Assembly: GCA_002633005.1 (NCBI GenBank)
Contig: NMRA01000274.1
Span: 101,817-165,816, forward strand
DNA length: 64,000 bases
Direction of reading: 5' to 3'
Source: Phoronis australis
Lineage: Eukaryota; Animalia; Phoronida
Shown here piece by piece: positions 1 to 55,600 of this stretch. The notes below the pieces were generated by a model. The model saw only the letters and a program-made list of their open reading frames with translations. It was not told where the DNA came from and did not search any database. Within the stretch, counting starts at the first letter, position 1. The number at the start of each line of letters is the position of its first letter. Both the position numbers and the translations under genes were made by a program.

Positions 1-2006
1 CAACACTCCTGAATCCTTTCTACTTGTGTTGCAGCAATGTGAGCGTAAATCAACAGTCTGCATTTCATTCACCACACAGGCCGCAGATTAAAATAACGCC
101 ACAAGTTTATGTATAAAGTTTATGCACAATTTACAGCAAGGTTCAATACAATCATGGAAGGAGGTTTGCCATCTATCTTACAAAATTAGCATACATGCAA
201 ATGTACAGATTGGTGTAAGTAGGCCCCGGCCAGTATGCGATCTTCCTATGCTACAACAGATGCATAAAGCTACAGGCCTCATCTTAGAATGCATGCAACT
301 GAAATCACTACAACTACTAGATTCATATGCACACTCCATTGTGCTCGCGTCTCTAAGCCACCTGCACGAAAGCACAACACGTTCACAACTTAACATTCAT
401 TCCTGCACCCAGTATTAATCGAACCGAGAGGCAAAAAGCTTAACAGCAACCGTGTTCTTTTCATTTTTGTCAACATGCCTTTTTATCGCGACGTCTTCCG
501 ACTTCGGTGCAGGAATCTTCGTGAAACGGAGCCACAATGACTTTGTTATACCTTGCACACAATAAGACAAAACCTTAGAAGACACCGTTCTTGTCTCGTC
601 CATCTCAACATCAGTTTCACAACCCTATAGTATACGTACAGAAAATCAAAAAAAGAATCCTTCAATTATTCAGAGGAAGACAGTCGATGGAATTGTGATC
701 CACTATTTAGGAAGGCACTGGCAAAATTGCAATCAACAATCATTTTACCACCAAAGGTATAAATCTCTTGAATAGTCAGTTATAAGTATAAAACGCACAG
801 CTCACAGAATTAAAATTTTGCGAAAAGACGAGACGCAACTGATTAAAAACAAAAGGCTGAATTACTATTAGTAGATTTGTCCAATAATTGCACTTTTTCA
901 AATAAACAGGCACATATTTTGAAACAAACATGTAGATAACCAGATTGAATCTTAACAAATACACCACTGAGTATCTAGTCGATATAAATGCAAAACTGTC
1001 TTGAACACAAGTTCTACAATACATGTATTTAAGTAAAACCAACACGAGATAACAAGCTGACGAGTAGTAAGTAGTAGCCATTAACAATGGACGTCCTACG
1101 ACAGTACGAGATCGTGAAATTCACGGATACGTAATGATATGTGCAACAGCTAGAGCAAGACTGGAGAGAATTCCTCTATTAAAAAATTACCCTAATTACA
1201 ACTGCATTCGCCAACAGTTACCAAATTGGACCACAACAAAGAAAGCAAGTCAACAACCTAGAAATTTACAATTTTCGCAACTAGAACTTAATTACACAAT
1301 TAGAAGGAGGCGGGTCGTCTCCCACCTGATTAATTACAATTTTAAGACATTCTCCGACAACTCCTCTCAGTGTGACCTGTTTGCAGGGCGGCTGCTACCT
1401 ACTACCTAATACTAGTACGTAAACATGAAACCTTTACAGATAAAATAAACACAAAGAGAGAGAAAAGCACCATGATTTGACAAAGTCGGAAAACCCAGTT
1501 CTAAGCTAGTAATATATATCATACGAAAATCTCATTTACAATATACACAAAAAATAATTGTTCAATATAAAAACTGTCACCACTTCGCTAACTCCCATAG
1601 TACGCGCACGTCACTCTTGGCGCGTCAATAAAGTAGATTGCCCACGTAAGGTAGGTCAGGTTTTGGTGTAATGCTTAAAAACGACCAATAGGCCACCGTC
1701 TCTCTGTGTGTGTAAACAAGTGTACATCGAGCCCTCGCAATGAAGGAAAACAGGAAATAAATTAGAAGACCCGGCGAGGTGGCCAGACCCAGATGACTAA
1801 CTAATAAATATCTAAAATATAATTTCTACTGTAGGATTAAGTACAGCTCTACTAAAACAATCACCAGGTGTCGCCACCGAACGCCGGGTCTCCGCAACAA
1901 GCGACAGCAAAAGCTGCCTCGTCAAGTTAACCCAAACTGCTTCGCGACACCAAACACTCAAAGGCATATCACATGTCGACACATCACCCAAGTTGCTACG
2001 GTAATG
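1..2006 (-). other. probable 3' UTR of the E-protein gene
   Basis: Follows the stop codon and is U-rich on the minus strand. I saw no clear AATAAA, so it may run past the window edge. Confidence 0.5.
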
Positions 2007-2155
2007 CTACTGCGTCGATGATGCCGTCGACGAGGTTGGTGCCAAGTTCTCGAGGTCACTGGCTTGTCGCGGAAGGATGCCGCTGGTCATATAGCCCATC
2101 CCCTGTGCAGGTAGATAGGTGCCTAGATGTCGTGGCCAGCTCATTGCCGCACCAT
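2007..2155 (-). CDS. TCF12: probable terminal coding exon (D)[48 protein letters not shown]
   Basis: Pyrimidine-rich acceptor gttcttgttccacag, phase 1, open to TAG at 2007-2009. A second acceptor at 2102 would stop at 2056. Confidence 0.6.
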
Positions 2156-5100
2156 CTGTGGAACAAGAACAACCGGGGGGTTAGTGGAAGGGACGGCTTC
2201 TGTCGGAGCTTCGTGGGGGAAGTGCATCGCTGTGTGTTGGGGGATATTCAAATCTACGAGGGTAAACAGAGGTCAAATTGCTGCACGGGGGGTCATGCGG
2301 GTGCAATTACTCCAGTAAAATAATCTTCAGTACTGGTGACCGTTACCAAATGCATTTCCAACTAAGAAGCCTTCATAAAACAACTGCTTTTGTCCATACA
2401 AGGCAAAGTCCCCAGTCTTAAAGGCCACCACACAGATAATGAAGAGTCGAGCAAAAACTGATTGACAAGGCAGACAACACATCGGAACATTTCCCAGCAT
2501 CAGCCCAAATAATTACCAACCATTTTGACACTCTAGCCCAACGAATAAATATTTCACTCCTGTGGTTAGGGTGATTTGACACAACCTATTCCCTATTTTC
2601 TTACGCCGGTCCACATTTTGAGAATAGGGGCAACTTGACAGAGGCTGCAAGTTGGCCACGTCACACATTACAACTAACAGTGTTTACATGGCGTATAATC
2701 TAACAGCAGTTCACACGACAGAAATTATCTCCTGTTTTGACTGAATACCAGTCGAGAACACAGCCAACAAGCGAACATAATGAGTGTGAGAAGGTTATTA
2801 CACTTTTCGGTCGACTAGCTTGGGGCCACTTATTACGGGAATGGCATTTTCGTGATGCCCGGGCATACAACTGGCAGAGCTAAATACACGTGCGGTCCTG
2901 GCAACACATTAGCCATCACATCAATTTACAAATCCCAACACCCTCTGCCAAATACCACACATAACAGTCACCTTTTGTTTGTCAACATATTGCTTACATT
3001 TGAATAAGTTAAGGTTTTGATGCCCATTTCCCGTGAAACTAGGTCAAGATAAATTAAAGCTCAACAGAGAATGGAACGTTTTTATCCAAATATACGCCCT
3101 GGGCATGAGGGAAATTCCTGCCCGTATTTGCCATTCGTAGGATAATTAAAACGCCGTGTGATCATTCCTCGCAAATCTCCAATCAGCCATCTAAAATAAA
3201 TTGTGTCCACCCAAATTGTGTTTTCATTTTCCAGGACTTTTACAGTCTACAAATCTCAATTTCCAAGAGTTATTTTTCCATGAAAAAGTAAACAATTTTA
3301 ATTTTTGCTGATGATTAATGCCAAGCCTAATCGAATGAATTAATTATCTATTTGAACCACAAAATGGGAGCTTCCTGAAATTTTCCTCCATTTTTTTGTC
3401 AAAATCGACCTTCTTTCAGTTTTCAAAACCCTTCCAACATTGTTGTGAATACCAACAACTTTATCTCAAAACCAGCTTCACTTCTCCACCACATTGCATC
3501 ATCAATTACGAGATTTCACCGTACTTGCACACAATTCGCCACTGCGCTTGAAAACGATGTGTCGTGTTCAAACTACAACGGTTCTGCACGTCTGGCAGGT
3601 TCTGCACGTCTGGCACACGCGTGCCTTAACGTTTGCATTGTCAAAATCGATGCTAAAACGAGCCTTTGTCCTAAACAATAATGCACAGCAATAGTTTTCT
3701 GCAGCGCTACCAAAGTGAGCAAGAAGTGAATTAGCGAAATGCGACAACATTCCACAATAAGCAGCCAAGAACCAGCCCAACTCGCCAGTCACTAACCTGG
3801 CGAACAACCCCCCCCCCCATCCTCTCCACTGCTGGGTTAGTATTAAGCACAAGCCAGAGGAATCAAGGGTGGTAGAAAGGGTACGAACCTTACCTGCCAG
3901 CGCCTGATGCGCTAGCTCCTCATGACTCAGTGCCCGGCCCCCGGGAAGCTCTTCGCTTTTTTCTTCCTCGCGCCGCTTCAGGCACGCTGCCTTGGGGTTG
4001 AGGTTACGTTCTGCAATGACAACCGTGAACGCGTGATCGTTGAGCAGTGGCCAACTCGCCAAAACGAGTACGTGTGGAAAACGCAAAATCGTGACGTGAA
4101 AATATATACGACAGGTCAATTCAGATATTATTTAGTCATCTACAATTGAGAAAGAAACAACCACAGTGGTTGAACTAGGTTGATGAACTACAAGTGAAAC
4201 TGAATTCAAGGGCAACACTTGCGTAACCAAGAGTGGAACAGTGGGAAATACTTGTAGTTGTCTCCCCTTAACAACAAATGAGTCAGAAGGGGTGCATATA
4301 ACCACGACAATGCGTACGGAAACGCACGCACACACACAAGTCACAAGAGAGAGAGATGGCTCTCACCTCGGATTTGCTCCTCTAAACTCGTGATAACATT
4401 GACGGCCTGCTGCAAAATGGTTAATTTTGTCTGTGGTTTGTCATTACGTAAGTGGAGACTACACATGCGACCCAACTCCTTAAATGCCTCGTTTATATCC
4501 CGGACACGTATCCTGTACGAAACAGAACAACAGAAAAACAAGATCAACAACTGATGTCAACAACCGCCCCAATGGGAGGCGGTGGCAGCAGCAGTGCCGT
4601 CTAGTGGCCCACCCAATGTACCACGATTCCCCAATGCACACGACCACCGAAATAACAAAGTCAGCTGTTCGATCGATACACACCCAACATTGCAAAAATG
4701 TTGTCACAAACCAAAACTGAATATTCAGTTATTACGGTACACTTTTTGCGTCGATCGCGACAACCAAAAATGCTCGGAAACTGGGTCGCGCAGGTGGGGT
4801 GGACGTGTCATCATCGGGTGGCGCCCCCTGTTATCACGTGACCAGTTCATTTACCTCGCACTTGCTGCTCTAGTGACGTGATAAGAGTGACTGCCTGCTG
4901 CAAGACCATTAGCTTGGTGAGTGGTTGGGTATTACTTGTGTGAAGTGTCACCATGTGGCCCAACTCTTTGAACGCTTCGTTGATGTCGCGAACGCGCACT
5001 CTACAGAGACAAAGCACACGCCATCGTTACACACGGGAATCCAGCACTTGGCCAGCAGGGGAGACAATAGCTGGATCTCATTTACAACATACGTGGATTA

Positions 5101-8100
5101 AAGTGAAACAATTGCCTACATTGATTAACAAATAATACAGGGTAAAATAAAATTACACAAGACACCGTAAACAAAATCTCAATACTTTATTTTTACAATC
5201 GATGCCAAGAGCCCTCACCAGTAGAATCGAATATTTTCTAAACCTTAAAGATTCAAACTTTAGAAAACAACTGTAGCACTACAGAAAAAATAGCCAGTGC
5301 TTAACATAACAGGAAGCATTGAAATCCTCTCCTTTGACCTACCTTTCCCTTGCATTGTTGGCCTGACGACGAACTTTTTCCCTTTCCTGCTTTACTTCAG
5401 CAGGCTCATCGGGATCTTCCTGGTCACTTCTGAAAAAGACCAGCGTAAACGTAATGATACAGCGAAACAACGTTCCAAGAGGCACAACACACGTAGCTAG
5501 AGCATCCATGTTCGTGGTGAATGCAATAATTAAACTACCGAAATGAACCAATCTGTGAAGTCTCATCCGACAAAATATAAACAGTTGATGAGGAACAAAA
5601 GCAAAGAAATCTGATGAAGATTTACACTATGTAATCCAGATGTCAAGGTGAAGGTTGCCAGAAAAGGCATGTGTGAACTCACTGTCACAGGATGGACAGT
5701 AATGGTGCACACAACAGGTTTAACACTTGTGGACAGTAATGGTGCACACAACAGGTTTAACACTTGTGGTCGGCTCATGCACAGCAGTTGATGAGACAAT
5801 AACGACACACTTATATCGGAGAATAACCACAAGACCATTGTGACCTCGTGATTGGTTATTGAGCTTCAGTTCAAGCAAGGGGCACTTTGTGATTGGTTAG
5901 TGAACATAAGAGCATGCAAAAGCAATCTTGTGATTGGCCATCGAATGCTAATTTCACTTTGTACCTGATGGAATATTTGGCATAGTCCATTTGAATGTTC
6001 ACAATGTTTATGTAATCCATGTTTCTCAGAGAATCATAAAAAAACAAAACCACACTGTTCTTTCTGAATGAAATACATGCAAGCTGCAGTTGCCTCTACT
6101 GGTGATCCGAAATTTGACAGATGGTTCATCCCAACTGGAAAAGTGGTCGGTTAGTTGAGTCAAGACTAAGCCAAAACTCATCTATATGCAGATGCTGTTC
6201 CAGAAAGCACAGATGTTTACTGCTGTGCTGTCTAGTTGCACACTTGGATGGCCAAACTGTCCAGACACATTATTGCAACAAGATCCAGCTGCGCATGGCA
6301 CAAACATATGGTGTTGCTGGCCAACTAGGCTTCGGGGACAGCCATGCCATTGGAAATTAATTATCAAGCTATCTGTGAGTGTGTACTAAAGTTACACCCA
6401 ACCTTGGTCACCAGGGGTCGCTGGTTTTAGGTTTGGATTCAACTGGTGACCTACTACCAGTACCCAACAGAACGGATTGGTAAGCAAGCAAGGTAAACAA
6501 AAGCATGAAGACACAGGATGACCAGCTTCTTACAAGATGCAACTTCCAAGCCAGACAAGAGAATCACTGGACATTAAAGAGACATTATCCTTTTTGCGGG
6601 CGAAAAATACCATTTTGGAATTTTAGTTGAATGATATAGACTTCTCAGTTATTTGCTTTGACCGGAGCTAAAAAATAACAGAATCCGTCCATTGTTTGTG
6701 TGGTTTTATTAAAAATGGTCTATTCTTGCTGATGTCCTCCAGACATTTGCTGAAATTACTGCAGGCATCTTCATCTACTTGAATACGCTTAAAAATACTC
6801 TATTCCCCACAAGGATTTGTCTAGGCGGCAGAGCGCTTGGCTGCTACTGCGAAATTAGTGGGTTCGATTCCGTGCTACTGCCAACTTTCGTAACATTACT
6901 TTTCTCCCCGATATAATGTCCCTTCCTCAACCGCTGCAATCCAGTGACTTGAACTATCAATACAGAAAACAAGAAAAAACAACGGGACAAACTTCCGTCT
7001 CTCTGTCATGTCACACGAGCCATCCTGAAGGCTACGCTGATAGGGTGCACTGCTTGCACTCAGCAATCATAACGGATTTATGCGTCGCTTTGTCCTATTA
7101 TTTTCAGCATGTAGTGTAGCTGACTAGACAGAAGACTAAGAGGCATCTCTCAAAGCCAAGCGTTAAGGCAATGCTGCAGTTCACTTTGCCAACATACATT
7201 TGACAGGGGACATTTAGCAACTTCGGTTGCACTGACCCAGCGGATGGGGCTTTCACCAACATCAATACGGACAAATGCTATTTACTCTGGCGCACAACCA
7301 CAACCAATGAAAACACCCCTTCCGCCCCATCCCTTGACCAATAGCAACCACTTTTGCCAATGTCTACTTACTGAGCAGGTTCTGATGTACTCTGGCGTAC
7401 ATACCGACTACGTTTATTGGGTGGTGCTGAAGACGTTGAATCCCGCCTTTCGGCAGGACTAGTTACTGGTTGTGATGACAGGCTTGCCTCTGAACGCGAG
7501 TCGTCCATGGCCGACTGCTTATCCATTTTTTCTATTTTAATAGAGCCATCTGTTGTTTGCTCCACAGGATCGGATTTCATGCCTGAAAAAAAAAGAGTTA
7601 AATTTCACGCATTTCTTGCAAAATAACATTAATATCAGACGATAAGACCACAGTTGGTTGCGAAACAGTGCCTATTACATCGATCTCGGAATGAATACTA
7701 ATTTAACTCGCATTTACAGTTATAACTGTTAGAACTGTAGCTGCCACAAACACATCAACACTCAAACAAAACTGTAACTCTTTCTCAAGAAAACCATAAT
7801 TTGAAAGCTGGGAACAGCTGCGAAACGTTTCTACCGAATTTTCACTTCACAGCACCCAACGAAGCAGGCGAAATTACTGAATTTACCCCTCCAATCTCCA
7901 CTACAGTGTATAGCACTCAGCTACAACTGACTGTGTCGCTGTGGCAACAGATCAGTGCATCATATGGCTCCAGTTGACTCTGCACTGGACCTGATAATTC
8001 AAAGTGGGTCAAGTTCATGTGATATTCATCTACTTGTCCACAACTAGGTTAACAAGGCCCAGTGCAGAGCAGCCAAACACCATCAGTTACCAACAGGGCT

Positions 8101-11100: not shown

Positions 11101-14100
11101 GTGACGTTGTTGGAGCCAGTAACTATGGCGATATCAGTAACAGAGTTGTTTCCTAAGAATGTGTCCTTTAAAGGTATGTTCACCAAAACTGTTCGTAAAA
11201 ATAGACACCCAGGTTTTGCAGTTACTTAGTTAGTCAACTGAATTAAACAAGCCTCCCTTCACAGCATAATTCAATCAACTATCCAACTAAAATGCAACAG
11301 TATGTTAATTAAATGCCATAATTGATGAGGAAGAATAACCGAATAAATCATGACAGACAGATAGAAATGCACAGCACCACTCTCTCAGCAAACACAGCTA
11401 GTGATCATGTCAAAACCTCAACAGCAATAGGACAACAAAGGCATCAAAAGATCATCAACCACTATCACACAGCGCCACCTACCTGTATGTGTGAGTCTAG
11501 ATGGCCAGGCAGGCCCATGGCTGGATAGCTGGAGGGGATGGAATGTCCGGGGTGCACTAGACCGGCCATGCCGGGGTGCGGCGGGAAGCCAGGCAGTTGA
11601 CCCTCGGCGTGGTTGCGCAGGACGTGGATGGCGTCGTCCAGCCTCTCTTCCATTCGACTTTGCTATAACAGAAGAGATGGCAGTGATCAACAAGGCAACA
11701 ATGGATTCATACTTCATAGGTTTACATTCAACTTGCAACCTCATAAGAATCATGATCAAAGTAAGAATGTGGTTGTGGAATTCACCTGCCACCCTCAGGC
11801 ATAGAGTTCGGTGCGGTTGTTCAAAAGTCCGCATCAGGCTCCAGGATCTAATCTTTGTACTCGAAATCACACCCAAAATTACTTTTTGCATTTTCTGTTC
11901 TACTTTTGTGCAAACTTCATATAAGCGTCTATTATTCCGTATCTGAGTAAATTATGGTTTATGCGGGCAAGTTTCTAGTCCAAGTTTGCACTTAATGACC
12001 CCTGCATTAAAGCGACAAGTTAGAATGTGGACTCCAAAAAATCGAGAGTTTTTGCTCGAGATTGTAGTTCAAATTTAAAGCCCATCAAGAGCAAACTTAG
12101 AATAAATCAATTATCATAATTTACACAAACACAAAATAATAAACACTTAGTTTCAGTTTGTGCACAAACAGAATGGAAAAAGTAAAAAATAACTTTGAAT
12201 TTGATTTCGATTAAAAAGATTAGATCTCATGACCCCCCTCCCAGACCACTGTTTTATGAAACGCCTGAAGATCAGTACTGTAGTCAGGACCCAACACACT
12301 TTGAAATGAGGTTCAAATCGGTAAGTGCGGACAGTAACTCAAAATGTGAAGCCACTAGAACAAAAATGTGAAAGACATTTTCAATTTGTTGGTTCGCCAT
12401 TACATCTATTGAGAATTCATTGAAATAACATACCACAGTAACTGTTGCATGGGAGATTTCTTAACATAAACAGTTATTCACAGTTCATCAGCAGAAGTGA
12501 CTAGATTACTAGACTACCACAACACCGACTAGGGGAACTAGGGCACTAGGGGCTAGGTCCTATGCTAGACGGAAAGCACAAAGCTACGAAAGAAAGGTTT
12601 GCCAATAAAAGTTTTTTCCTGTTCGACACCTTTAAAGTAAGAGTCCAGTTTTGTGCGGCATTTCAACACACAACAAGGACTAGGAAGAAACAATTTCTTA
12701 TAGATCATGTGGCTGTCTTAGCCATTTTGTGAACTAAAAAAGCAAGAGAGCAACTTTCCATGACCAATGTATAATGGTATCGAACAGAAATAGGGGGCGT
12801 CTCTCAAGACCAGAGAGAGGTAGAGAGATCAACGGATCTTTGGACTGCTCGTGTTCGAGGCCAACACGACTAGTAGTATCTGCAAGGAAAATCTGCATGT
12901 AACACGACACGAAGATATGACGAGAAGCATGCATACAAGATGGCCGCCACCACAAGCACAAGCCCGTCCACCGAGTAGCCGCGTTACCTCCACTTGGTCA
13001 CGTAACCCGTGGATGGCGTCGTCTAGACGTTCCTCCACGCGGGATTGCTGAAAAAGTCGAGCACGAGGGTCTGGAGACGAGTGCAACCGCGCCAATACAT
13101 GTGACCTGCACAGAGCCTGTGGTACCTGTGACCTGCACACCCTATGATACCTGTGACCAGCACAGACCCTGTGGTACATGCTCCCTTAAGCCACTAGAGC
13201 TAAGTCAGGAAGAGAAACAGTCAACCACATGAACTACATATCTCTATCCATCTATCTATCCAACATGCATCCGAAAACAACGTGAAGACATTTTCAAATC
13301 AATCTAACGCGAGACGAATCGATCGAGATGAAATTTCAAATCCAATTTGCGCCCAATTAGCGCCAGGTGGCCACCAATCTTTGGCACCCGGTCCCCTTGT
13401 TTACCCAGTGTGTTTCTCATTGATGAGCACGCCCACTTACCAGACAATGTAGATGACTTTCAAAAGGTGGCGAGGTAGTGCTCTGTGTTGTAGGCCAACG
13501 ACCCGTGGGGGGACCTGCAATCAGATGGAACAACCTTGTAACAAAATCCTCCACCAGTAGTAAGCAGCACAAAATGAAGACCTAATTCACTTAGTTAAGT
13601 GAACTCTGGAGCACGACAAAAGTGCAGTTCGCATGCAGTCTTCCAACAATTATTTTACGAGAATTTCAACTATTGGTAGGGAATGCTGAATTGTATTTTT
13701 CTGCTTAAGTCCATTTTCCCCAAACCAAGCCACATCAAATCACTGACAACTGATAAAAACCATTGATGAGAGGGGGTTTCCTCTCATCCAAAAAAGTCCC
13801 CACTCAGACAGCACTGGTGAACAAGAGGCCAGGCAATTTAACAAGACTGGATCCCCACTGCTGCATATGTCAGCGATTTGTTCACAGTACAGTACAAATG
13901 AAACTCAGGTCAAACTATCGAAACCCGGTTTGTAAGTAAAATTTAAGAGCGAAATGTAGATTATACAAATAGGCCCTCTCGACTGGCTGTTCATTGACAA
14001 TTGGCAAGGCTGCTTACAACAGCTAGGACCAAGAAAGCGGGCGAGCCGCAGTTTACCTGTGATTGACTGTGGCGATGAGACTGGCGTAGAACTGTTTGAG

Positions 14101-15391
14101 CTGTAACTGGTGGCAGTGTGGTCTGTTGAATAGATCTGAAAACAACGAGTGAGAAAGAGACACGGTAAGGTCATGGTACTGTGGACAGTATTTTGATAAA
14201 TGACACCAAAGTTCCTCCTCAGCAGTGAGCCATGAGGTGGTTTTGAGCAACACTGACAGCAGTTTGTTATGATGACACTGATAATATACTCTTGCGTTAC
14301 TCAGCAGAATTTTAGCGGACCAAAATGGAAATGAGTCTAACTTTTTGTGCTAAAGGTGTTTCCCACTTAAATCATTTCCCTTGTATTTTTTGTATTTTTA
14401 GCACTTGGGTGAGCTAAATAAATAAGGTAAAAACACAAAAGAAAAATGGTTCACTAGACCACACAAATATACAGATTATCCTGGAGGCGTTTCAAAACTG
14501 GGAACTTAGTAACTGTGTAAAATCTATTGCGTTTACTAAATAACAGGGTTTGACCGGGTCTCGAGATATGGGGGAGTTTCAGCTGTGGCACAAATCTTGC
14601 TGACTGCGGTTATGCTAAACCTATATAGCACCAATAAAGATGAGTGAAAATTTATTCCAATTTCTCAAAAAATGAAGATTAAGGAAAATCTTGATTCTAT
14701 TATTAGCGTGATTTGTACTGTGTAGATGTAACCAAAGAATACTTTTCAAAGTTCCCATTATTTACAGCAAGGTAAAAAATAGAAAATTGACAATTTTGAC
14801 TATTACTTTGGTGCGAAATAAGAAATGACCTATCGCCAGGATATTGAGTGACAGCTTAATTGACCAATCAGAACCCAGCATTCTTGACACACATTAGTTT
14901 CCAAACTGCCATTTTACCCGACAAACAACACATTGTCGGGTAAAACTCATTGTTTGGTGACTTTTTACAAGGAGGCGGAGCTTGCAATAGGTCAATTACT
15001 GCATGACCAGACAGGCATCTCCACAGACGCCCAAGCACATGGCTCCACAGATCAGAATAACATCAAGTCACACTCAACAGTGCAACTGTATTACAGAAGT
15101 ACTTAGTCTCAAAACGGTGCCAGTGAAACAGAGGGTTCACCCGAGTGTGCATACTCACAGAGGCGAGCGCCTTTCCCAGGGCGTCCGAGCTGCCCTGTGA
15201 CCTCGGCACCAGGTCGGGCCCGTTGGCAGCGGTGGCTGGCGACGAGGTGGCCGCCGTCCGACTGTGGGCATGGAAGGTGGAGAGGGGCGGGAGACCCGAG
15301 CTCAGCTCTGTTGTGTGGTAGCCACCCTGCCACGAGTGAAGCAAAGGCATTTATAAGGGGATCACTGACCTTGAAAGGGCATCAGTTATCA

Positions 15392-18400: not shown

Positions 18401-19087
18401 CATTGGCTTGGCATGGGAGAATTTGGCTAAAATATTTAGAGGCCATGTGCAGTTTACCAGAACTATTTACAAACTTGGCTTAGGTGCTGGCAATCCAGAC
18501 AACTGCTTGTTTAAATTAACATTCGCAGAAAATTCAATAAAATAAATATAAGTTTCTGTGCATTTACGTTTACGTGCCCACAAAGCAAAGAGAGAGAGAA
18601 AGAGAGAGAGAGAGAATCCTAAAGCCGATATCGGGCAACAACCTCCCCACGCTAATCTTCAACACCCAAATCCATGCCAAAACTTGTAATGACGTGAAAT
18701 CAACGTTCTCTTACCTGTGCCGAATATGTAGGAAGGAGAGGTGAATCGGGGCGAGTCGTGTGTGTACTCATCGGGGCTCCCAGAATATACCTGAAACAAA
18801 GTGCAAGGATGTTTAACCAGCCAACGGTATATCGCGTTCATTTCTCGCACCACAGTAAATCAACTGCCGCTTAACCGTAGAGCCAAGGACAAATCGGACA
18901 GACTCTTAAATCATGGTGGCCCATAAAAACGACTGCGCATCATTTGATCATTCAGTAATCAAGGAAATAACTGAATTTGATGTTAGCCGATATGACAAGC
19001 ACAAAGCTTTTAAATAAATTGCGAAAAACCAACACGAGGAAGTAAACNATAAGTTTCTGTGCATTTACGTTTACGTGCCCACAAAGC

Positions 19088-19126
<39 letters not shown>

Positions 19127-22100
19127 ATCCTAAAGCCGATATCGGGCAACAACCTCCCCACGCTAATCTTCAACACCCAAATCCATGCCAAAACTTGCAA
19201 TGACGTGAAATCAACGTTCTCTTACCTGTGCCGAATATGTAGGAAGGAGAGGTGAATCGGGGCGAGTCATGTGTGTACTCATCGGGGCTCCCAGAATATA
19301 CCTGAAACAAAGTGCAAGGATGTTTAACCAGCCAACGGTATATCGCGTTCATTTCTCGCACCACAGTAAATCAACTGCCGCTTAACCGTAGAGCCAAGGA
19401 CAAATCGGACAGACTCTTAAATCATGGTGGCCCATAAAAACGACTGCGCATCATTTGATCATTCAGTAATCAAGGAAATAACTGAATTTGATGTTAGCCG
19501 ATATGACAAGCACAAAGCTTTTAAATAAATTGCGAAAAACCAACACGAGGAAGTAAACCATCCCAGTCACTCGCACAAAAGGCTTCATTGGTTACTATGA
19601 CAACGCTCAAATCAAACGTGAACCAATTTTTATTTAATCAACAGAGTGACTGGCTCTCTGGAAAATCACAATGCCCAAAGCGAACGATTTCCAACAAATG
19701 GTAGTGGTGAAATGGAGAAGAATGTGGAGTGAAAATTCTCTCCGTTTCGATAAGTGCCCATGCATGCTTTGTCACAATTATCTTTTCGAGGACAGAATGA
19801 AAGCAAACAATGGACAGCAAGGTCATTGCATAACTAACTAGCCATAGGATTAAAATTATTCAACATGGGACTGAAATAATTGCTAAAATAGCCACTTTTC
19901 TCATTCAGTAGATGGCTACCACACAAACCACGGTTAGAAAGAAGAAGGCAGAAGAACTTGCTCAAGAGTTATTTCTGTTGAGAAATCTCACTCGTCTGCC
20001 GTACTGTGTTTGCAAACTGCGGAATTTTTTTACAATTCTGCATCAATAACGTGTAAATCTGATACTTTGAAAAGTAATTCTGGAAATAATCTGAAAGGAA
20101 AGGCGCCAAACTATATAGTGTGTTAAGATAAAGAACTGATCTAAATTTGACAAACGCAACAGAATCAAAGCACAATGCATACGTTTACCGGGCAAAGCTC
20201 AAACTACAACAAGGAAATACTGGAGCCCAACGGTTCAAAATCTTAGGATGGCTATGTCCGGAGAGCCTAGAACTAGAAACCAGAGAAAAATAATTTAATT
20301 AGCTTTATTTCCTTCTTTTTTCAGGAAATTAATTTATCAAAAACATTTTGGCCCTAAAAGCTTTTAAGCAAATACTTCCATCCCCTTTTCAGCAATGTGA
20401 GCAAATTTAATTGATAAAAACTGACTGTTCACACAGCTCATTTGCAGATTGCCTGAAGCCCGTATATGAAATATAATTATTGAAAAGAGGAACACAAGTC
20501 TTGTCCTGAATTGACCGAACGAGGATTTTTTCAAGTTTTAGATGAGTCCAAAGGACACCTTAAAATTCATTCAGTTATCTTGGCACGCGGACGACACAGT
20601 GTATATAATTGAAAAAAAAAACTATCCTTTCGAAAATACAAGGTTTCCTACAGAAAATATTACAGAAGCCCAGGCGCTAGTCACCCGTCTCACAAGATGG
20701 ATTGAGTAAAGAAAGGCCAGACCAACACTGACACATTTTTTGTTTCGTTTTTTTTTATAATAATTTACGTAATTGATTGGTAAACGGACAAGGTTGGGCA
20801 AATTTAGGACAATTTGCAGCCCTGAACAGGTACAAACTCTCCCTAGTGTGGGGACTTGAATCAAATCCAGAACTGTAATAACTTAGCCCCAGCATAAGAA
20901 CTTGCAGACACGAATGCACCAGAAAACATAGAATCGTATTCACTGGTACTTATGACAGACGCTCACAGAATTTGCAACCAAATCTCAATGATGAGCAACT
21001 GTGTCCTGAGTAACTCTAAAACATGCTAGAGCCTGATGACAATTTAATGTCATTTTCCTTATTCACACAGGAAATGGTGAGCCTGGCAAACAAGATTACC
21101 CAACCCCCTCACATAGGAATCTCTTGTTACCAGATCACCAAGGAGAACTATTCAGTCCTCCAGCCACTGGTTCGGGCAAACTCTAGGATCTCGGTGGAAT
21201 AAACTCTCAATTCAAGCGATAAGTCACATAAGCCCATAAAATTCTGCTAAACAAAAATCTTGACAAAAATGTATTAGAATTGTAATTGTCACACCAATAG
21301 CACAAAAAAGTTTCCTTTTTGCAGTCCTGAAAACGCCACTAAGAAATAATTTTCATATTAAATGCCAAGAGAAAAACATGTATCATTACAACACCTGATC
21401 AAAGTTTTCTTATAAAAAATATCTTCTACGACGTATTAGTTCAGGTTTTACACCTCAAGGAATGAACAATTTATTGCCGCCCTACTGAGATTTACCAGCA
21501 GACAATTGTTTAAATATATAATTTGAATTATATAGTACATTCTCAGAAAGGGCGAGGAGCAGAAGGAATGCTACAGGCCCATTCACCTGGTAATCAAGCT
21601 GATAATAATTATGTCATGACAGTCACAAAGCACAATCACCCATGGGGAAAACTTTGAGAGGGGGTCTTTGTCAGTTCTTGGTCTTCACCAGAACTGCTGT
21701 GACAGATCAGGTCAGCTGGCTTAGGCAATAACTGAAGGCCAGGGAAATATGTGAACAGACCTGTACAAGAATGTTGATTGGCGTTTGGAGGGACAGCAGA
21801 GAAACCAACACAAGGGATAAGACAACACTTGGCCTTCCTCAGTTCAGACTGCAGAACAGCGATATACCAAGAATACACCACACTGTGTGTTATCAGTGAT
21901 CTATCAAGGATGAAGACATGTTTAGTTCTGTCCAAAAATACATCAAATTTCGAACCCCTTGAACTTTAATAATCATGGTTATCACGGACAGCAGTTTGCT
22001 ACAATTGAAAGGATATTTTTACTAAATTGTAATTCGCCCAATATTTGAAATATGTTTCATCGGTAATCAGTTTCTCAGGCCCAAACATATCACGGTAAAG

Positions 22101-50700: not shown

Positions 50701-51684
50701 AACTTTGGAACATCATATTTCAATAATGGCTGACCACATTCATGAGGAACTTTCAGATACTATGTTTTACGCATTGTTTTCTAAAACCCTGATAGGAAAT
50801 ATTCAATGTTTCACTTTTGCATGCGGGACTATCGAAACTTAAGGCTTTTTTATTTTTATGAAAAAGGTTAAGTTTCATAAAACACAAACGAAATGACAAT
50901 TTACAAAACTATTACAGCTTTTTTGAAAATTCATCATGAACATTTTTTTATCAATCAAAATTGGTCACGTCGTTTAATAGTGTTGTTTTGCAATTGATGC
51001 TCCTTTATTTTTTGCTAGTTTTCACTAACAAGACATAGTCGCATTACCCAATAAAAGGCGAATTGGTATGAAATCAAAATCAAATTCTACAGGCTTTCCG
51101 CTATTAGAAAATATTCCCTCTATAGTTTTGCACATATTTGAGCTAAATACATAGACTTAGTCAATAGGGTCCACCCAAACTATAGAGTGTACTCCCAGAC
51201 AGCAGCATCATGGGACAGAAGTAAAGAAGTTCACTAATATGGAAACATGGAAAAGAACTTGGCTAGGAATCTGAACAGTTCAGCAGTAATAAAATACTTC
51301 AACTTTTTCATTATTTGTAGCATTCTTCAGTTATCATAACTATGCCCCAATCGCAACAATGGAAAGGGGCAATGGAAGCTACCATTTATGTCCGAAGTTG
51401 GTGACATTTTACTGCAGCAGTAGAACAGAGGCAGTAGAACAGTGTAGTAATGATAGCAGTTCCAGTGGCAGCTAGCAGCAACTAGCAGCAGCTAGCAATA
51501 GCTAGGAGCTAGTAGCAGCCTGCAGCAGCAGCACCAAAACCATCACCACCACCACCACCACCACCACCGCCACTACCACCATCATCACCACTAATACTGA
51601 TAGTTATAGTAATAACCAATTGCAGTAGCATTAGCCATAGCAGGATCAATAGTAGCAGTAGCAGTAGCAGCAGTAGTAATAGTA

Positions 51685-51730
<46 letters not shown>

Positions 51731-52494
51731 TAGTAACAGTTGTAGTAATACTTGTAGTAAGCAAAATCTGCCTAGACTGATAAAGAAGCAGACTGGGTTT
51801 ATTTCTGTACATGCAGCTGCACTGCAGCTTTAACACTGTCCAGATGGGTTGGTGGGAAGCCAGCTGAGACTCACAGCTGCCCCAACCAGTCAGTTGTAAG
51901 CTGCCCTACATTCTCCATCACAACCAGTGGAAGCTGCTGAGGACTGGCTGGTTGGCTGGCAGTAATCAGCTTATACCACACAGCAATATGAACATGTGTA
52001 AGTTTGGTGCTACATATATACACAGGGATAGGCCCAGCAGTTAAAGCAGCTTAACTCTATCCACTGTCACTTAGTCGGGCACTAGGTGCAGTGATGTCAG
52101 TAGNACACTTCAACTTTTTCATTATTTGTAGCATTCTTCAGTTATCATAACTATGCCCCAATCGCAACAATGGAAAGGGGCAATGGAAGCTACCATTTAT
52201 GTCCGAAGTTGGTGACATTTTACTGCAGCAGTAGAACAGAGGCAGTAGATCAGTGTAGTAATTATAGCAGTTCCAGTGGCAGCTAGCAGCAACTAGCAGC
52301 AGCTAGCAATAGCTAGGAGCTAGTAGCAGCCTGCAGCAGCAGCACCAAAACCATCACCACCACCACCACCACCACCACCGCCACTACCACCATCACCACC
52401 ACTAATACTGATAGTTATAGTAATAACCAATTGCAGTAGCATTAGCCATAGCAGGATCAATAGTAGCAGTATCAGTAGCAGCAGTAGTAATAGT

Positions 52495-52537
<43 letters not shown>

Positions 52538-52545
52538 ATAGTAGT

Positions 52546-52579
<34 letters not shown>

Positions 52580-52587
52580 ATAGTAGT

Positions 52588-52639
<52 letters not shown>

Positions 52640-55600
52640 ATAATAACAGTTGTAGTAATACTTGTAGTAAGCAAAATCTGCCTAGACTGATAAAGAAGCA
52701 GACTGGGTTTATTTCTGTACATGCAGCTGCACTGCAGCTTTAACACTGTCCAGATGGGTTGGTGGGAAGCCAGCTGAGACTCACAGCTGCCCCAACCAGT
52801 CAGTTGTAAGCTGCCCTACATTCTCCACCACAACCAGTGGAAGCTGCCGAGGACTGGCTGGTTGGCTGGCAGTAATCAGCTTATACCACACAGCAATATG
52901 AACATGTGTAAGTTTGGTGCTACATATATACACAGGGATAGGCCCAGCAGTTAAAGCAGCTTAACTCTATCCACTGTCACTTAGTCGGGCACTAGGTGCA
53001 GTGATGTCAGTAGCTAGCAAGGGGGTCAACTAGAGGAACTGCACACAGTGGAGGAGATAGAAATTTTCCACGGCACATCAGTTTGGCAATTATAAGCGAG
53101 TGAATATGCAGTTTTGTCAACCAGGGTAATGCTGTTTTTGATTGGGAATTAGTGGAAAATTTGTAAGAGAAAATACCAACAGGAGGATTGGCAAGAGTAT
53201 ATTAACAGAAAGAAACGGACGAAAACGAAATGGAAGAGTCAACGCCACCTATGCTAAGAAATCAACAGAAATGTCAAAATTTTGGATCTGTGCTCACAGC
53301 CTTCCTGCCAGAGATGCCACAAGGTGGACAACTGCAGACAGAAAACCATGTGTAACAAATTCAGTGCTACCACACGCAAAACAATGAAAATACCAGTTTA
53401 TTTAATACAAAACAGTTAACAATGCCAGTAATCATATAAACAATCCTTCTGCGCCATTTCTTAATCAGTAAAAACCTGGGAATAGGAACTTAATTAAATT
53501 AGTAAGATGACAGTAATGAACATAATTAGTATGATTGTAAACCAAGTGCAAAGTGACTTAAAGATAATTGGATAACTGCCAACAGCCAATCATAACACAG
53601 CGTAATGCGGCGAGGGGAAATCGCGGCTAATTAATCTTTGTTGGCAGCACTTAACATTTCAAAAACATTCGAGTAAATGCGACAGGGCAATACAGATAAA
53701 CTTCAAGTATTTTCATAGCCAAGTCAAACCTTCAACACGTGAGATTTGATCAGTACATTTCTTCACTGTTAACTAATAAAATCATTTTAGACGCTTCACT
53801 TGTTTTACACCAGTAAAAAAAAATTAATAAAGGAACCAACGCAGTCAGTCGCTGCCTTTTTCCATCCTTGACCTCAATGATATGCAAACCATGTTGAGGA
53901 GCTGCATTCAACAGTGTTTAGACTTTCAACGTCTCTAGAGTGTTTGTCAACACAAGTGAAGAGCTAAAAAGCCTATTTCCTGAGCGAGCAGTCCTAAACC
54001 CCGGCGACTTCCCCAAGCGTATAAGTCGAGCACCAATTAGAAGCGCTACGGTAAGCAGTGAAGGCTGCTTCATTTCAATGAGATGCGACCAAAACAATGA
54101 TGATTAGGCAGAGGTTATTTGCAAAGGCGATTAAGCAAATGACGCCGGCGGCTTGTTGAGATAGAGTTGGCAGTCAAATACTGAGGCGTTTACAACCTTG
54201 TTTGCCCATGACGCGAGAGTCATCGATCGCTTGTCAGCCAAATCAATTCCGGGAAGAATGTTAGAGAGCCGGATACTCATTGATTTCAGTTGGCCATTGA
54301 TTGCAACGTGTAGTCATTCAAGACCTGGTTGGTTCAACATTGAACCGAGCTAGGGGCATGATGAGCAGTGTGAGAACATGTGCAGACGGTGGGGCCACAA
54401 CTCTAACTGCGTTGTAGACACAGTGGTCGAATCAATTGTACAATGTTTAACTTTTTCACATCAGCCCATTGTCTATTTTCAATGGGAACTAACGCCAAAT
54501 GCAAACAGAGACTCCCCTGAGGCCATCTCCAAGAGAACGTCTAGAAAGCTACTTAATTCACTTTTTCCATTGTTTATTAAATAGCTGAAGCAATCAAAGC
54601 CTGACAAGAAATTCTAAGTGATAAAAGCAAGTCAACCAATCAAAAAGAGATGGGTAAAACTGAGGCATATTTACGTGGTTGTAAAAAGTTACGACTGAAG
54701 AAAATCGAAGAGGTCTTTGCTAAATAGTAACAAATAGAAAAATAGATCAATTAAACACAAAGTCATTGAAATTATCTTATTGATGTATCCCGAATCTTAT
54801 GTCTAAATTCTTAACAGTGCTAATCAAACGAAGTTGAAAAGAACTAGTGATAAGGTTTCCACTCCATCCAGGCTCAACATCATAGAAATCAGATTTGTAC
54901 ACTGTCAATTAGCGGCACTTTGTGATAAAAATTGATGACGTCCTTCCCGTATTGAGAAGAACACACAGTAGAGTACTGCCGGCCGCTCAAATTTGTGAGA
55001 AGGTTAGACTGGACAGGGAGAAGAGCCCTCCCACTAAATGATGGACAGATATTTTGTTATTGTAAATGATAAAACGCCATTGTTTTCAAGTAACTCAGTT
55101 CACAGGGGTAACATTGGCGTGTCCAATTTCATTCAGGCACACACAGGCAGCAAACCAAAGGCCGTAGATCGTGAACAGCTCCAGTTACTTGACCCAATTC
55201 TTTCAATGCCATTACCAAGACCAGACAATAATCCTACCAGGTGAATGCAGCTAAGACAGCCATCCTGAGAGGGCAAGGTTTTACTTTCCTGTTGATTTGT
55301 GGCTAGAATGTCCAATTTGATGGATTGTAAACTTAATTTCTTGTCATTAAAAACCAAAAATATTATAGAATTATTTCTAAGGCATCTGCAACTGAAGTAT
55401 GGAAATTCCACTCAAAATTTGTAATTTTGTCAACGAAGTCTAATTCGGTGAGTTTTCCGAAGTCACGAAAACCAGAGTCTCTAGAACTTACGACATGTCT
55501 CCACAAAAGAAAATCTATTATTTTTACGAGTGGCTAACATTTCCAAAGTAAGGAAATTTAAGAATGACACAAACTTAGAATCCAATCGTTGTTTTCAATA

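Follow-up and report, generated by a model that had tools for sequence, protein, structure and literature searches.

The window analyzed here, by which we mean the whole 64,000-nucleotide (nt) stretch of Phoronis australis DNA from position 101,817 to 165,816 of contig NMRA01000274.1 (assembly GCA_002633005.1), carries on its minus strand an E-protein gene (daughterless/TCF3-4-12) of a lophotrochozoan host. MyoD, proneural, Twist, and SCL factors all depend on E-proteins as obligate partners, and an invertebrate is usually credited with one E-protein gene and one basic helix-loop-helix (bHLH) domain. In this gene, a single exon for the basic region is followed by two tandem exons, A and B, each of which encodes the helix-loop-helix (HLH), and the reading frame stays open only when one of the two is used. 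Our interpretation, to which we give a probability of roughly 0.7, is that one basic exon with two HLH exons read one at a time is a Spiralia-wide arrangement, that it likely arose separately from the E12/E47 pair, and that its predicted effect falls on the loop and outer surface of the domain, with the reading of the E-box kept.

The closest named homologues of the gene are TCF4, TCF12, and daughterless. Its bHLH is most like that of E47/TCF4, the matches of exon B in the PDB being TCF3 or TCF4 chains in 8 of 8 cases, and the peptides of exons A and B each pass the cut-off of Pfam HLH PF00010. Both hallmarks of class I bHLH proteins are present, namely, a 16-residue C-domain stretch after the bHLH (in exon C) and, upstream, the motif LDDAIHVL (exon 11662-11483), which we take to be AD2. 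The core of the gene is laid out as follows.

5343..5429, minus strand: exon S, shared, 87 nt; acidic stretch and basic region; RNA joints 7372>5429 and 5343>5000.
5001..5342, minus strand: intron S-A, 342 nt; separates the basic region from the HLH.
4855..5000, minus strand: HLH exon A, 146 nt; uncharged loop, belonging to the derived spiralian type; the spliced form in all RNA examined.
4513..4854, minus strand: intron A-B, 342 nt.
4367..4512, minus strand: HLH exon B, 146 nt; intact, conserved, and of the ancestral type; no splicing in the RNA examined.
3889..4010, minus strand: exon C, common downstream exon, from RNLNPK to the C-domain; 122 nt in reads; joints 4855>4010 and 3889>2155.
1900..2155, minus strand: exon D, the last exon (its start); stop after 4 codons, then 3' untranslated region running below 1900.

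Exon S terminates within a split Arg codon after NNARE (equivalent to TCF4 R578 and E47 R556). Exons A and B share AG/GT borders, phase 2 on entry, and phase 1 on exit, and they are identical at 33 of 48 residues and 101 of 146 bases (69%). Different codons encode 17 of the 33 shared residues, and in codons 2 to 11, 9 of 10 differ synonymously; nonsynonymous divergence (dN) is 0.24 to 0.25 and synonymous divergence (dS) is 1.1 to 1.4 by three methods. When exon B is compared with the last HLH exons of four distant loci, 40 to 42 of 48 residues are identical with 14 to 29 synonymous codon changes, and against distant B exons dN is 0.12 to 0.15 with dS high or saturated (8 of 10 cross-pairs had a saturated NG86 dS). 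The acceptor of exon B has pyrimidines at 15 of 20 positions. The preliminary description of this locus, made from the sequence, had reported the two tandem exons with these lengths, phases, and identities, and all of these values were reproduced; its reading of an old duplication under purifying selection in an E-protein gene is likewise supported. A recent duplication, at which the equal 342-nt introns might hint, was rejected, as the local score between the S-A and A-B introns (20) equals the shuffle mean (20). Neither a third HLH copy nor a second basic-region exon was among the matches listed in the window (tblastn, 13 queries).

Inclusion of A and B together leads to a premature stop 248 nt before the last junction, and omission of both leads to one 115 nt before it, as had been claimed for both-or-neither splicing. 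Stops more than 50 to 55 nt before the last junction mark an mRNA for decay, so the double-inclusion and double-skip products are marked for nonsense-mediated decay (NMD).

The RNA consisted of three raw runs of one study (18 to 19% of each run) and one contig set, all under the same species label; the reads were mostly 99% alike to the window, and a joint was listed when it had at least 3 reads. Two of the four junctions named in the preliminary description were found: S>A (5343>5000) in 16, 11, and 13 reads of the three runs, 40 in total, and A>C (4855>4010) in 20, 20, and 16 reads, 56 in total. The contig X1 follows the path S-A-C-D. Exon A, for which a lack of transcripts had been considered, was thus spliced in all RNA examined, and neither A>B nor S>C joints were listed in the three runs and the contig at the same threshold. 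Depth was zero over 4228-4421 in all four RNA sets, and therefore no aligned read spans the 3' end of exon B; faint depth near exon B in one run amounts to about two full-length unspliced reads, as summed from bins.

The pair is not peculiar to one genome: it is spiralian-wide, expands to 3 to 5 exons, and recurs in crustaceans. From 219 matches in metagenome DNA we kept 80 loci, many of which are near-copies from a few lineages rather than independent cases and some of which, on short contigs, may hide exons. The coding sequence is split at this site in 71 of them, 3 vertebrate-like genomic loci are continuous, and 6 are cDNA-like. The split exons are bordered as AG-146 nt-GT in 99 of 102 cases, and because the same borders recur in this way in 71 of 80 loci, the layout of A and B is not due to chance. 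Between two and five HLH exons are present in 20 of the 80 loci, with A first, a third type (where present) next, and B last. Five HLH exons stand in one locus (L008:80-2478), and the third type lies between A and B in L046, L048, L052, L060, and L076. Gene models that fuse both exons also have A ahead of B in Lamellibrachia, Macrostomum, Taenia, Schistocephalus, and Cichlidogyrus, and the models of Pinctada and Magallana hold two and three A-like units, respectively. The two Mesocestoides isoforms (P0092 and P0207) are both 362 residues long, and all 16 differences between them fall inside residues 150-195, which is an either/or pair; among the Owenia isoforms, 4 of 5 are A-type and 1 of 5 is of the other type. 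Sinanodonta and Ruditapes also have annotated either/or isoforms, there with two A-like types.

The position of the intron between the basic region and the HLH is common to annelids, molluscs, flatworms, bdelloid-like loci, and crustacean models and is absent from the three vertebrate-like genomic loci. Bdelloid (Didymodactylos-like) loci have the intron with a single HLH exon, Brachionus-like and bryozoan-like raw frames are continuous without it, and rotifer, bdelloid, and bryozoan proteins have a single B-like type. The basic-region exon is duplicated too in abalone, chiton, bivalve, and Owenia models (P0032, P0077, P0078, P0081, P0084, P0087, and P0372) and in L010:3276-3490; such duplicates could give combinations of basic and HLH exons. 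The beginning of exon C (RNLNPK) recurs at 68-nt intervals, 2 to 6 times, in the bivalve-like loci L004, L005, and L007 (in L007 at ~4520-4930).

Crustaceans have a comparable pair in daughterless/TCF12 annotations: as here, one basic exon precedes two HLH alternatives with the same border. Models of Homarus, Amphibalanus, Cyprideis, Hyalella, and Darwinula contain one basic region and two HLH units, and either/or isoforms are listed for Cherax (4 versus 11 among 15) and Oratosquilla (4 versus 7 among 11); the crustacean intron position is deduced from proteins and fused gene models rather than from DNA. Together with those of Mesocestoides and Owenia, these annotations support the earlier proposal of one-of-two splicing. 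In the crustacean pair the second copy is the derived one, whereas in the spiralian pair it is the first (A), and neither crustacean copy has the uncharged loop of A; the crustacean pair likely stems from a separate duplication. The second crustacean exon (P0242, P0243, P0245, P0247, and P0328) is of a type that we take to be that of insect Daughterless, and chelicerates and myriapods, whose proteins show one HLH type, resemble the first crustacean type. One HLH type per species was also found in the isoform lists of Ixodes, Parasteatoda, Limulus/Tachypleus, Ptychodera, Lytechinus, Acanthaster/Patiria, and Corticium, and in Saccoglossus 10 isoforms share a single sequence, from which 1 variant departs at four scattered positions. 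A Hypsibius model (P0362) contains two complete basic-plus-HLH units, the first of them divergent, as tandem genes or a vertebrate-like duplication of the whole domain would produce.

We placed the two exons in a tree built from 83 HLH units over 48 columns (LG+G4), from which one 49-residue Hyalella unit was excluded. The 31 A-type rows form one clade with support of 100/99, a value that is partly circular because those columns also contain the motif by which rows were labelled A. Independently of that label, all 9 A-plus-B tandem loci in the tree have their first exon inside the A clade; A is therefore the innovation, a derived copy, and B is ancestral-like, as judged from these sequences. 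The Phoronis exon A joins annelids (96/83), and summed whole-gene tblastn scores do not separate annelid from mollusc. The crustacean second copies form a clade of their own (100/99), both crustacean copies stay among arthropod sequences, and the vertebrate E12, E47, and TCF4/12-like rows group at 96/77; in the free tree, A and B do not pair one to one with E12 and E47.

The predicted consequences for the protein follow from where A and B differ. The structure model of exon A has a helix at 3-21, a loop at 22-28, and a helix at 29-47 (predicted local distance difference test score, 91.8); exon position n corresponds to human E47 residue 556+n. The residues of TCF4 described as contacting DNA (R569, R570, N573, N574, R576, E577, R578, R580, and K607; PMC6895265) and the E47 contacts of PMC8283981 lie in exon S or are invariant in A and B, in keeping with the earlier view that a shared basic region would leave E-box recognition little changed. 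Dimer-interface residues listed in section 11 of PMC8283981 are identical between A and B in 20 of 22 cases and conservatively changed in the other two, and the differences avoid that listed core (2 of 22; Fisher p 0.004), being located at the end of helix 1, in the loop, and on outer helix 2. Type-wide changes in A are R571 to Q/H/S, D/E580 to small residues, K581 to Q/T/N, Q583 to L/M/I, and 587 to M; those at 581-587 overlap the motif that labels A, and 571, 573, and 580 lie outside it. Position 573 changes from Cys to V/I in 31 of 31 A rows and is Cys in 11 of 13 B rows. A Cys at 573 forms disulfides in E2A homodimers. Between positions 15 and 27, the mean number of charged residues is 0.06 in A and 3.4 in B. 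PMC8283981 describes the bonds G570-Q583, Q574-K581, and Q583-Q591 as stabilizing the fold and an E568-R571 bridge in the E47-ID1 complex; the A changes remove these contacts and also hit T584-L587, likewise named there. They also alter a pocket atop the four-helix bundle described in PMC3289634, as far as our mapping of that structure holds. Since the DNA contacts are the same and 20 of the 22 dimer-core residues are identical, the exons point to tuning and not to a wholesale swap of partners. A and B are predicted to share the same E-box and core packing with a different loop, and the loop change may alter dimer stability, sensitivity to inhibitors, or a cofactor surface.

A steric block as the basis of one-of-two choice was rejected: the A-B intron is 342 nt long, its nearest branch-point-like site is 190 nt from the donor, and it has branch-point-like sites 30 to 43 nt from the acceptor. 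The best intron-intron duplexes scored -37.7, -32.5, and -35.9 against shuffle minima of -39.7, -39.9, and -37.0 (30 shuffles each), so docking/selector RNA pairing gave no signal above shuffles in the introns here, where close relatives for covariation are lacking.

We propose the following course of events. An intron cuts the bHLH directly after the E-box-reading Glu-Arg, as the exon borders here show, and makes the HLH a 146-nt module. As homology of the exons shows, this module was duplicated before the split of annelids, molluscs, and flatworms, which is more than 500 million years old, with the upstream A diverging and the downstream B remaining ancestral-like; later, lineages gained copies (up to five) or lost B. 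In the RNA examined A is the spliced copy, and B is probably a minor form restricted to certain tissues or stages. By analogy with TCF3 as described in PMC6795145, exclusivity would come from regulated exon choice, with NMD clearing the double-inclusion and double-skip products. The two isoforms would share E-boxes and most partners; what would set them apart is the stability of the dimer, its sensitivity to Id/Emc, or the cofactors that it contacts, since A swaps a polar helix1-loop-helix2 hydrogen-bond staple for hydrophobic residues and loses the loop charges.

Several observations weigh against this interpretation. The other two junctions named in the preliminary description, S>B (5343>4512) and B>C (4367>4010), were found in none of the three runs or the contig; the share of exon B is below about 5 to 7% of transcripts in the sampled RNA, and switching in Phoronis australis is not borne out by these reads. 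The pair is dispensable, as five bivalve-protein-like loci (L002 and L004-L007) have S-A-C without B and the Octopus isoforms are of one B-like type (14 of 14). The isoform evidence comes from automatic annotation and not from experiments, the steric and RNA-pairing tests on the introns here gave no positive support for a mechanism of exclusivity, the residue roles are transferred from human E47/TCF4 structures, and the B-type rows are scattered among single-copy sequences without a supported clade. The silence of B beside 40 and 56 reads for A, its absence between S and C in the five loci, and the A-only isoforms listed for Haliotis (15 of 15), Patella (11 of 11), Pomacea (11 of 11), and pectinids (15 of 15) and found likewise in mytilid and chiton lists would all suit an exon B that is a vestige in Phoronis australis, recently silenced and heading to the mollusc-like A-only state, and no longer part of a switch. 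We consider this unlikely: B has an open frame, the exact length, good splice sites with a pyrimidine-rich acceptor, and a low dN against distant B exons, and the runs come from one study of unspecified tissue. The preliminary description had gone further in the other direction and supposed that the HLH swap changes partner choice, A and B selecting different class II bHLH partners. That idea is weakened by the nearly identical listed interface and by the five A-only loci, because of which A can serve as a general-purpose HLH; A-only genes must pair with all partners. It still draws on type differences kept across phyla, on R571 of the E47-ID1 complex being among them (PMC8283981), and on positions 17, 21, 39, and 47, which by our mapping are the bundle caps Cys29, Leu33, Val51, and Val59 of PMC3289634, and we hold it to be a minority possibility, perhaps one chance in a few.

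The origin of the pair rests on gene structure and not on the tree. Approximately unbiased (AU) tests were run on 47 of the 83 rows. Under strict constraints all four pairings were rejected (p 0.002-0.027, with the E12/E47 pairings at p 0.02-0.03), a result biased towards rejection that we set aside because those constraints forced unrelated rows apart; we used the fair version, in which only the named rows were constrained. It rejected neither a one-to-one pairing of A and B with E12 and E47 (p 0.45 and 0.31) nor A with E47 alone (p 0.43) nor a pairing with the crustacean exons (p 0.25 and 0.16), and these results are further points against a separate origin. The earlier claim of independence from E12/E47 thus stands by gene structure and gains nothing from the tree. 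The vertebrate unit repeats the basic region, the vertebrate-like loci lack the intron, and invertebrate deuterostomes have one type; for these reasons we think it very probable that the spiralian pair arose separately from E12/E47. Descent of A and B as one-to-one orthologues from a bilaterian duplication with remodelled borders is correspondingly most improbable, given the different duplicated unit and the grouping of the vertebrate rows. A single duplication in the protostome ancestor, followed by many losses, would explain why spiralians and crustaceans share the intron position and the duplicated unit. The A signature is missing from the crustacean exons, the second copy has a clade to itself, and both copies sit among arthropods, while chelicerate and myriapod proteins have one type and rotifer, bdelloid, and bryozoan proteins a single B-like one; we judge such an ancestral duplication quite unlikely and separate origins of the two pairs probable. 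An assembly artefact or chance repeat, which one artefact-like duplication elsewhere in the window (~18560-19340, around N) might suggest, has a negligible chance for copies that are 69% alike with saturated synonymous sites, unrelated introns, and the same layout in many species. More tentatively, and as a joint claim that we would sooner doubt than accept, the reading of A and B as a spiralian either/or pair might extend to an HLH made swappable three times (vertebrates, Spiralia, and Pancrustacea). The spiralian cassette would then comprise 2 to 5 HLH exons (in some lineages with 2 to 3 basic exons), the uncharged-loop A would escape part of Id/Emc or redox control, would have become the default, and would have replaced the ancestral HLH in many molluscs, and insect Daughterless would derive from the second crustacean copy.

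Two further exons of the gene vary in the RNA.

7372..7582, minus strand: exon before S; two in-frame donors, 7372 major and 7405 minor, differing by 11 residues.
12988..13047, minus strand: cassette exon, 60 nt; carries another copy of the LDDAIH motif found in the exon that follows (11662-11483).

Reads across the three runs use donor 7372 in 7, 12, and 15 cases and donor 7405 in 0, 6, and 2. Their placement resembles that of the donors behind the RSRS +/- forms in exon 18 of human TCF4 (PMC3137626). For the 60-nt cassette, inclusion joints numbered 4, 0, and 2 and 3, 0, and 1, and skipping joints 8, 2, and 16; the LDDAIH motif is doubled likewise in models of Lamellibrachia, Pinctada, Haliotis, and Pomacea, and next to the HLH pair the cassette is another old tandem duplicate within this gene. 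Exon C ends at donors 3893 and 3888 (minus strand), 5 nt apart; reads take the distal one, giving the 4-residue last exon, and the proximal one would yield a tail 43 residues longer. The last intron (2288-3839, minus strand) has a sense depth of about 8 to 26 in two of three runs and a much lower one in the third, as retention or an alternative 3' end would give. Intronic repeats at 14826-14998, 11845-12130, and 3533-3669 attract many reads from elsewhere on both strands. Two near-identical copies of a 500-nt stretch that contains one exon lie around an N within ~18560-19340, a probable assembly artefact, and ~51500-52700 contains long low-complexity trinucleotide-like tracts (poly-Ser/His if translated).

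If the arrangement holds across Spiralia and crustaceans, a second isoform of the central dimer partner has been overlooked in developmental work on annelids, planarians, tapeworms, and crustaceans, and one transcription-factor domain has been hit several times by convergent exon duplication, a process familiar chiefly from ion channels. With its common basic region, the pair offers a natural experiment on what the loop and outer helix faces of an E-protein do. Among the listings and abstract openings searched, with subscription papers outside that scope, the TCF3 switch was found and no description of an invertebrate exon pair was; the isoforms are already present, unremarked, in automatic annotations. 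A survey of eight lophotrochozoans counted one gene of the class I E12-E47 family per species in most, and its count of 2 for Lingula and Helobdella may refer to genes or to exons; "splic" and "isoform" do not occur in its main text, which does not describe the exon pair, and its supplements may bear on novelty (Bao et al., PMC5381572). Tandem duplicated exon substitutions have been surveyed in human, fly, and worm, where they are enriched in ion channels (Martinez-Gomez et al., PMC9741552). As here, those exons are homologous and ancient, keep a conservative core, and arise convergently in orthologues of different phyla; here the case is a transcription factor in Spiralia and crustaceans. "TCF" is absent from the main text of that survey, and its supplements, too, may bear on novelty.

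The nearest known system is vertebrate TCF3 (E2A), an E-protein whose tandem homologous bHLH exons 18a and 18b are, as here, used singly to make E12 and E47 (PMC6795145 and PMC6317319). The two pairs have the same 3' border before RNLNPK. In vertebrates, either exon encodes an acidic stretch and a basic region as well (fused models P0211 and P0234), whereas here both lie in the single exon S, and the intron between basic region and HLH is present here and missing from the three vertebrate-like loci. The DNA affinities of E12 and E47 diverge because of the stretch on the N-terminal side of the HLH; the spiralian isoforms have this stretch in common and vary in the HLH alone. TCF3 exon choice is described as depending on a conserved element more than 500 nt from either exon, PTBP1/hnRNP H1, and intronic and exonic silencers (PMC6795145), whereas the introns here are 342 nt long. 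What was already known is a pair of mutually exclusive tandem bHLH exons in the E-protein TCF3, and what is new, as far as the literature searched shows, is a variant in Spiralia in which the HLH alone is duplicated.

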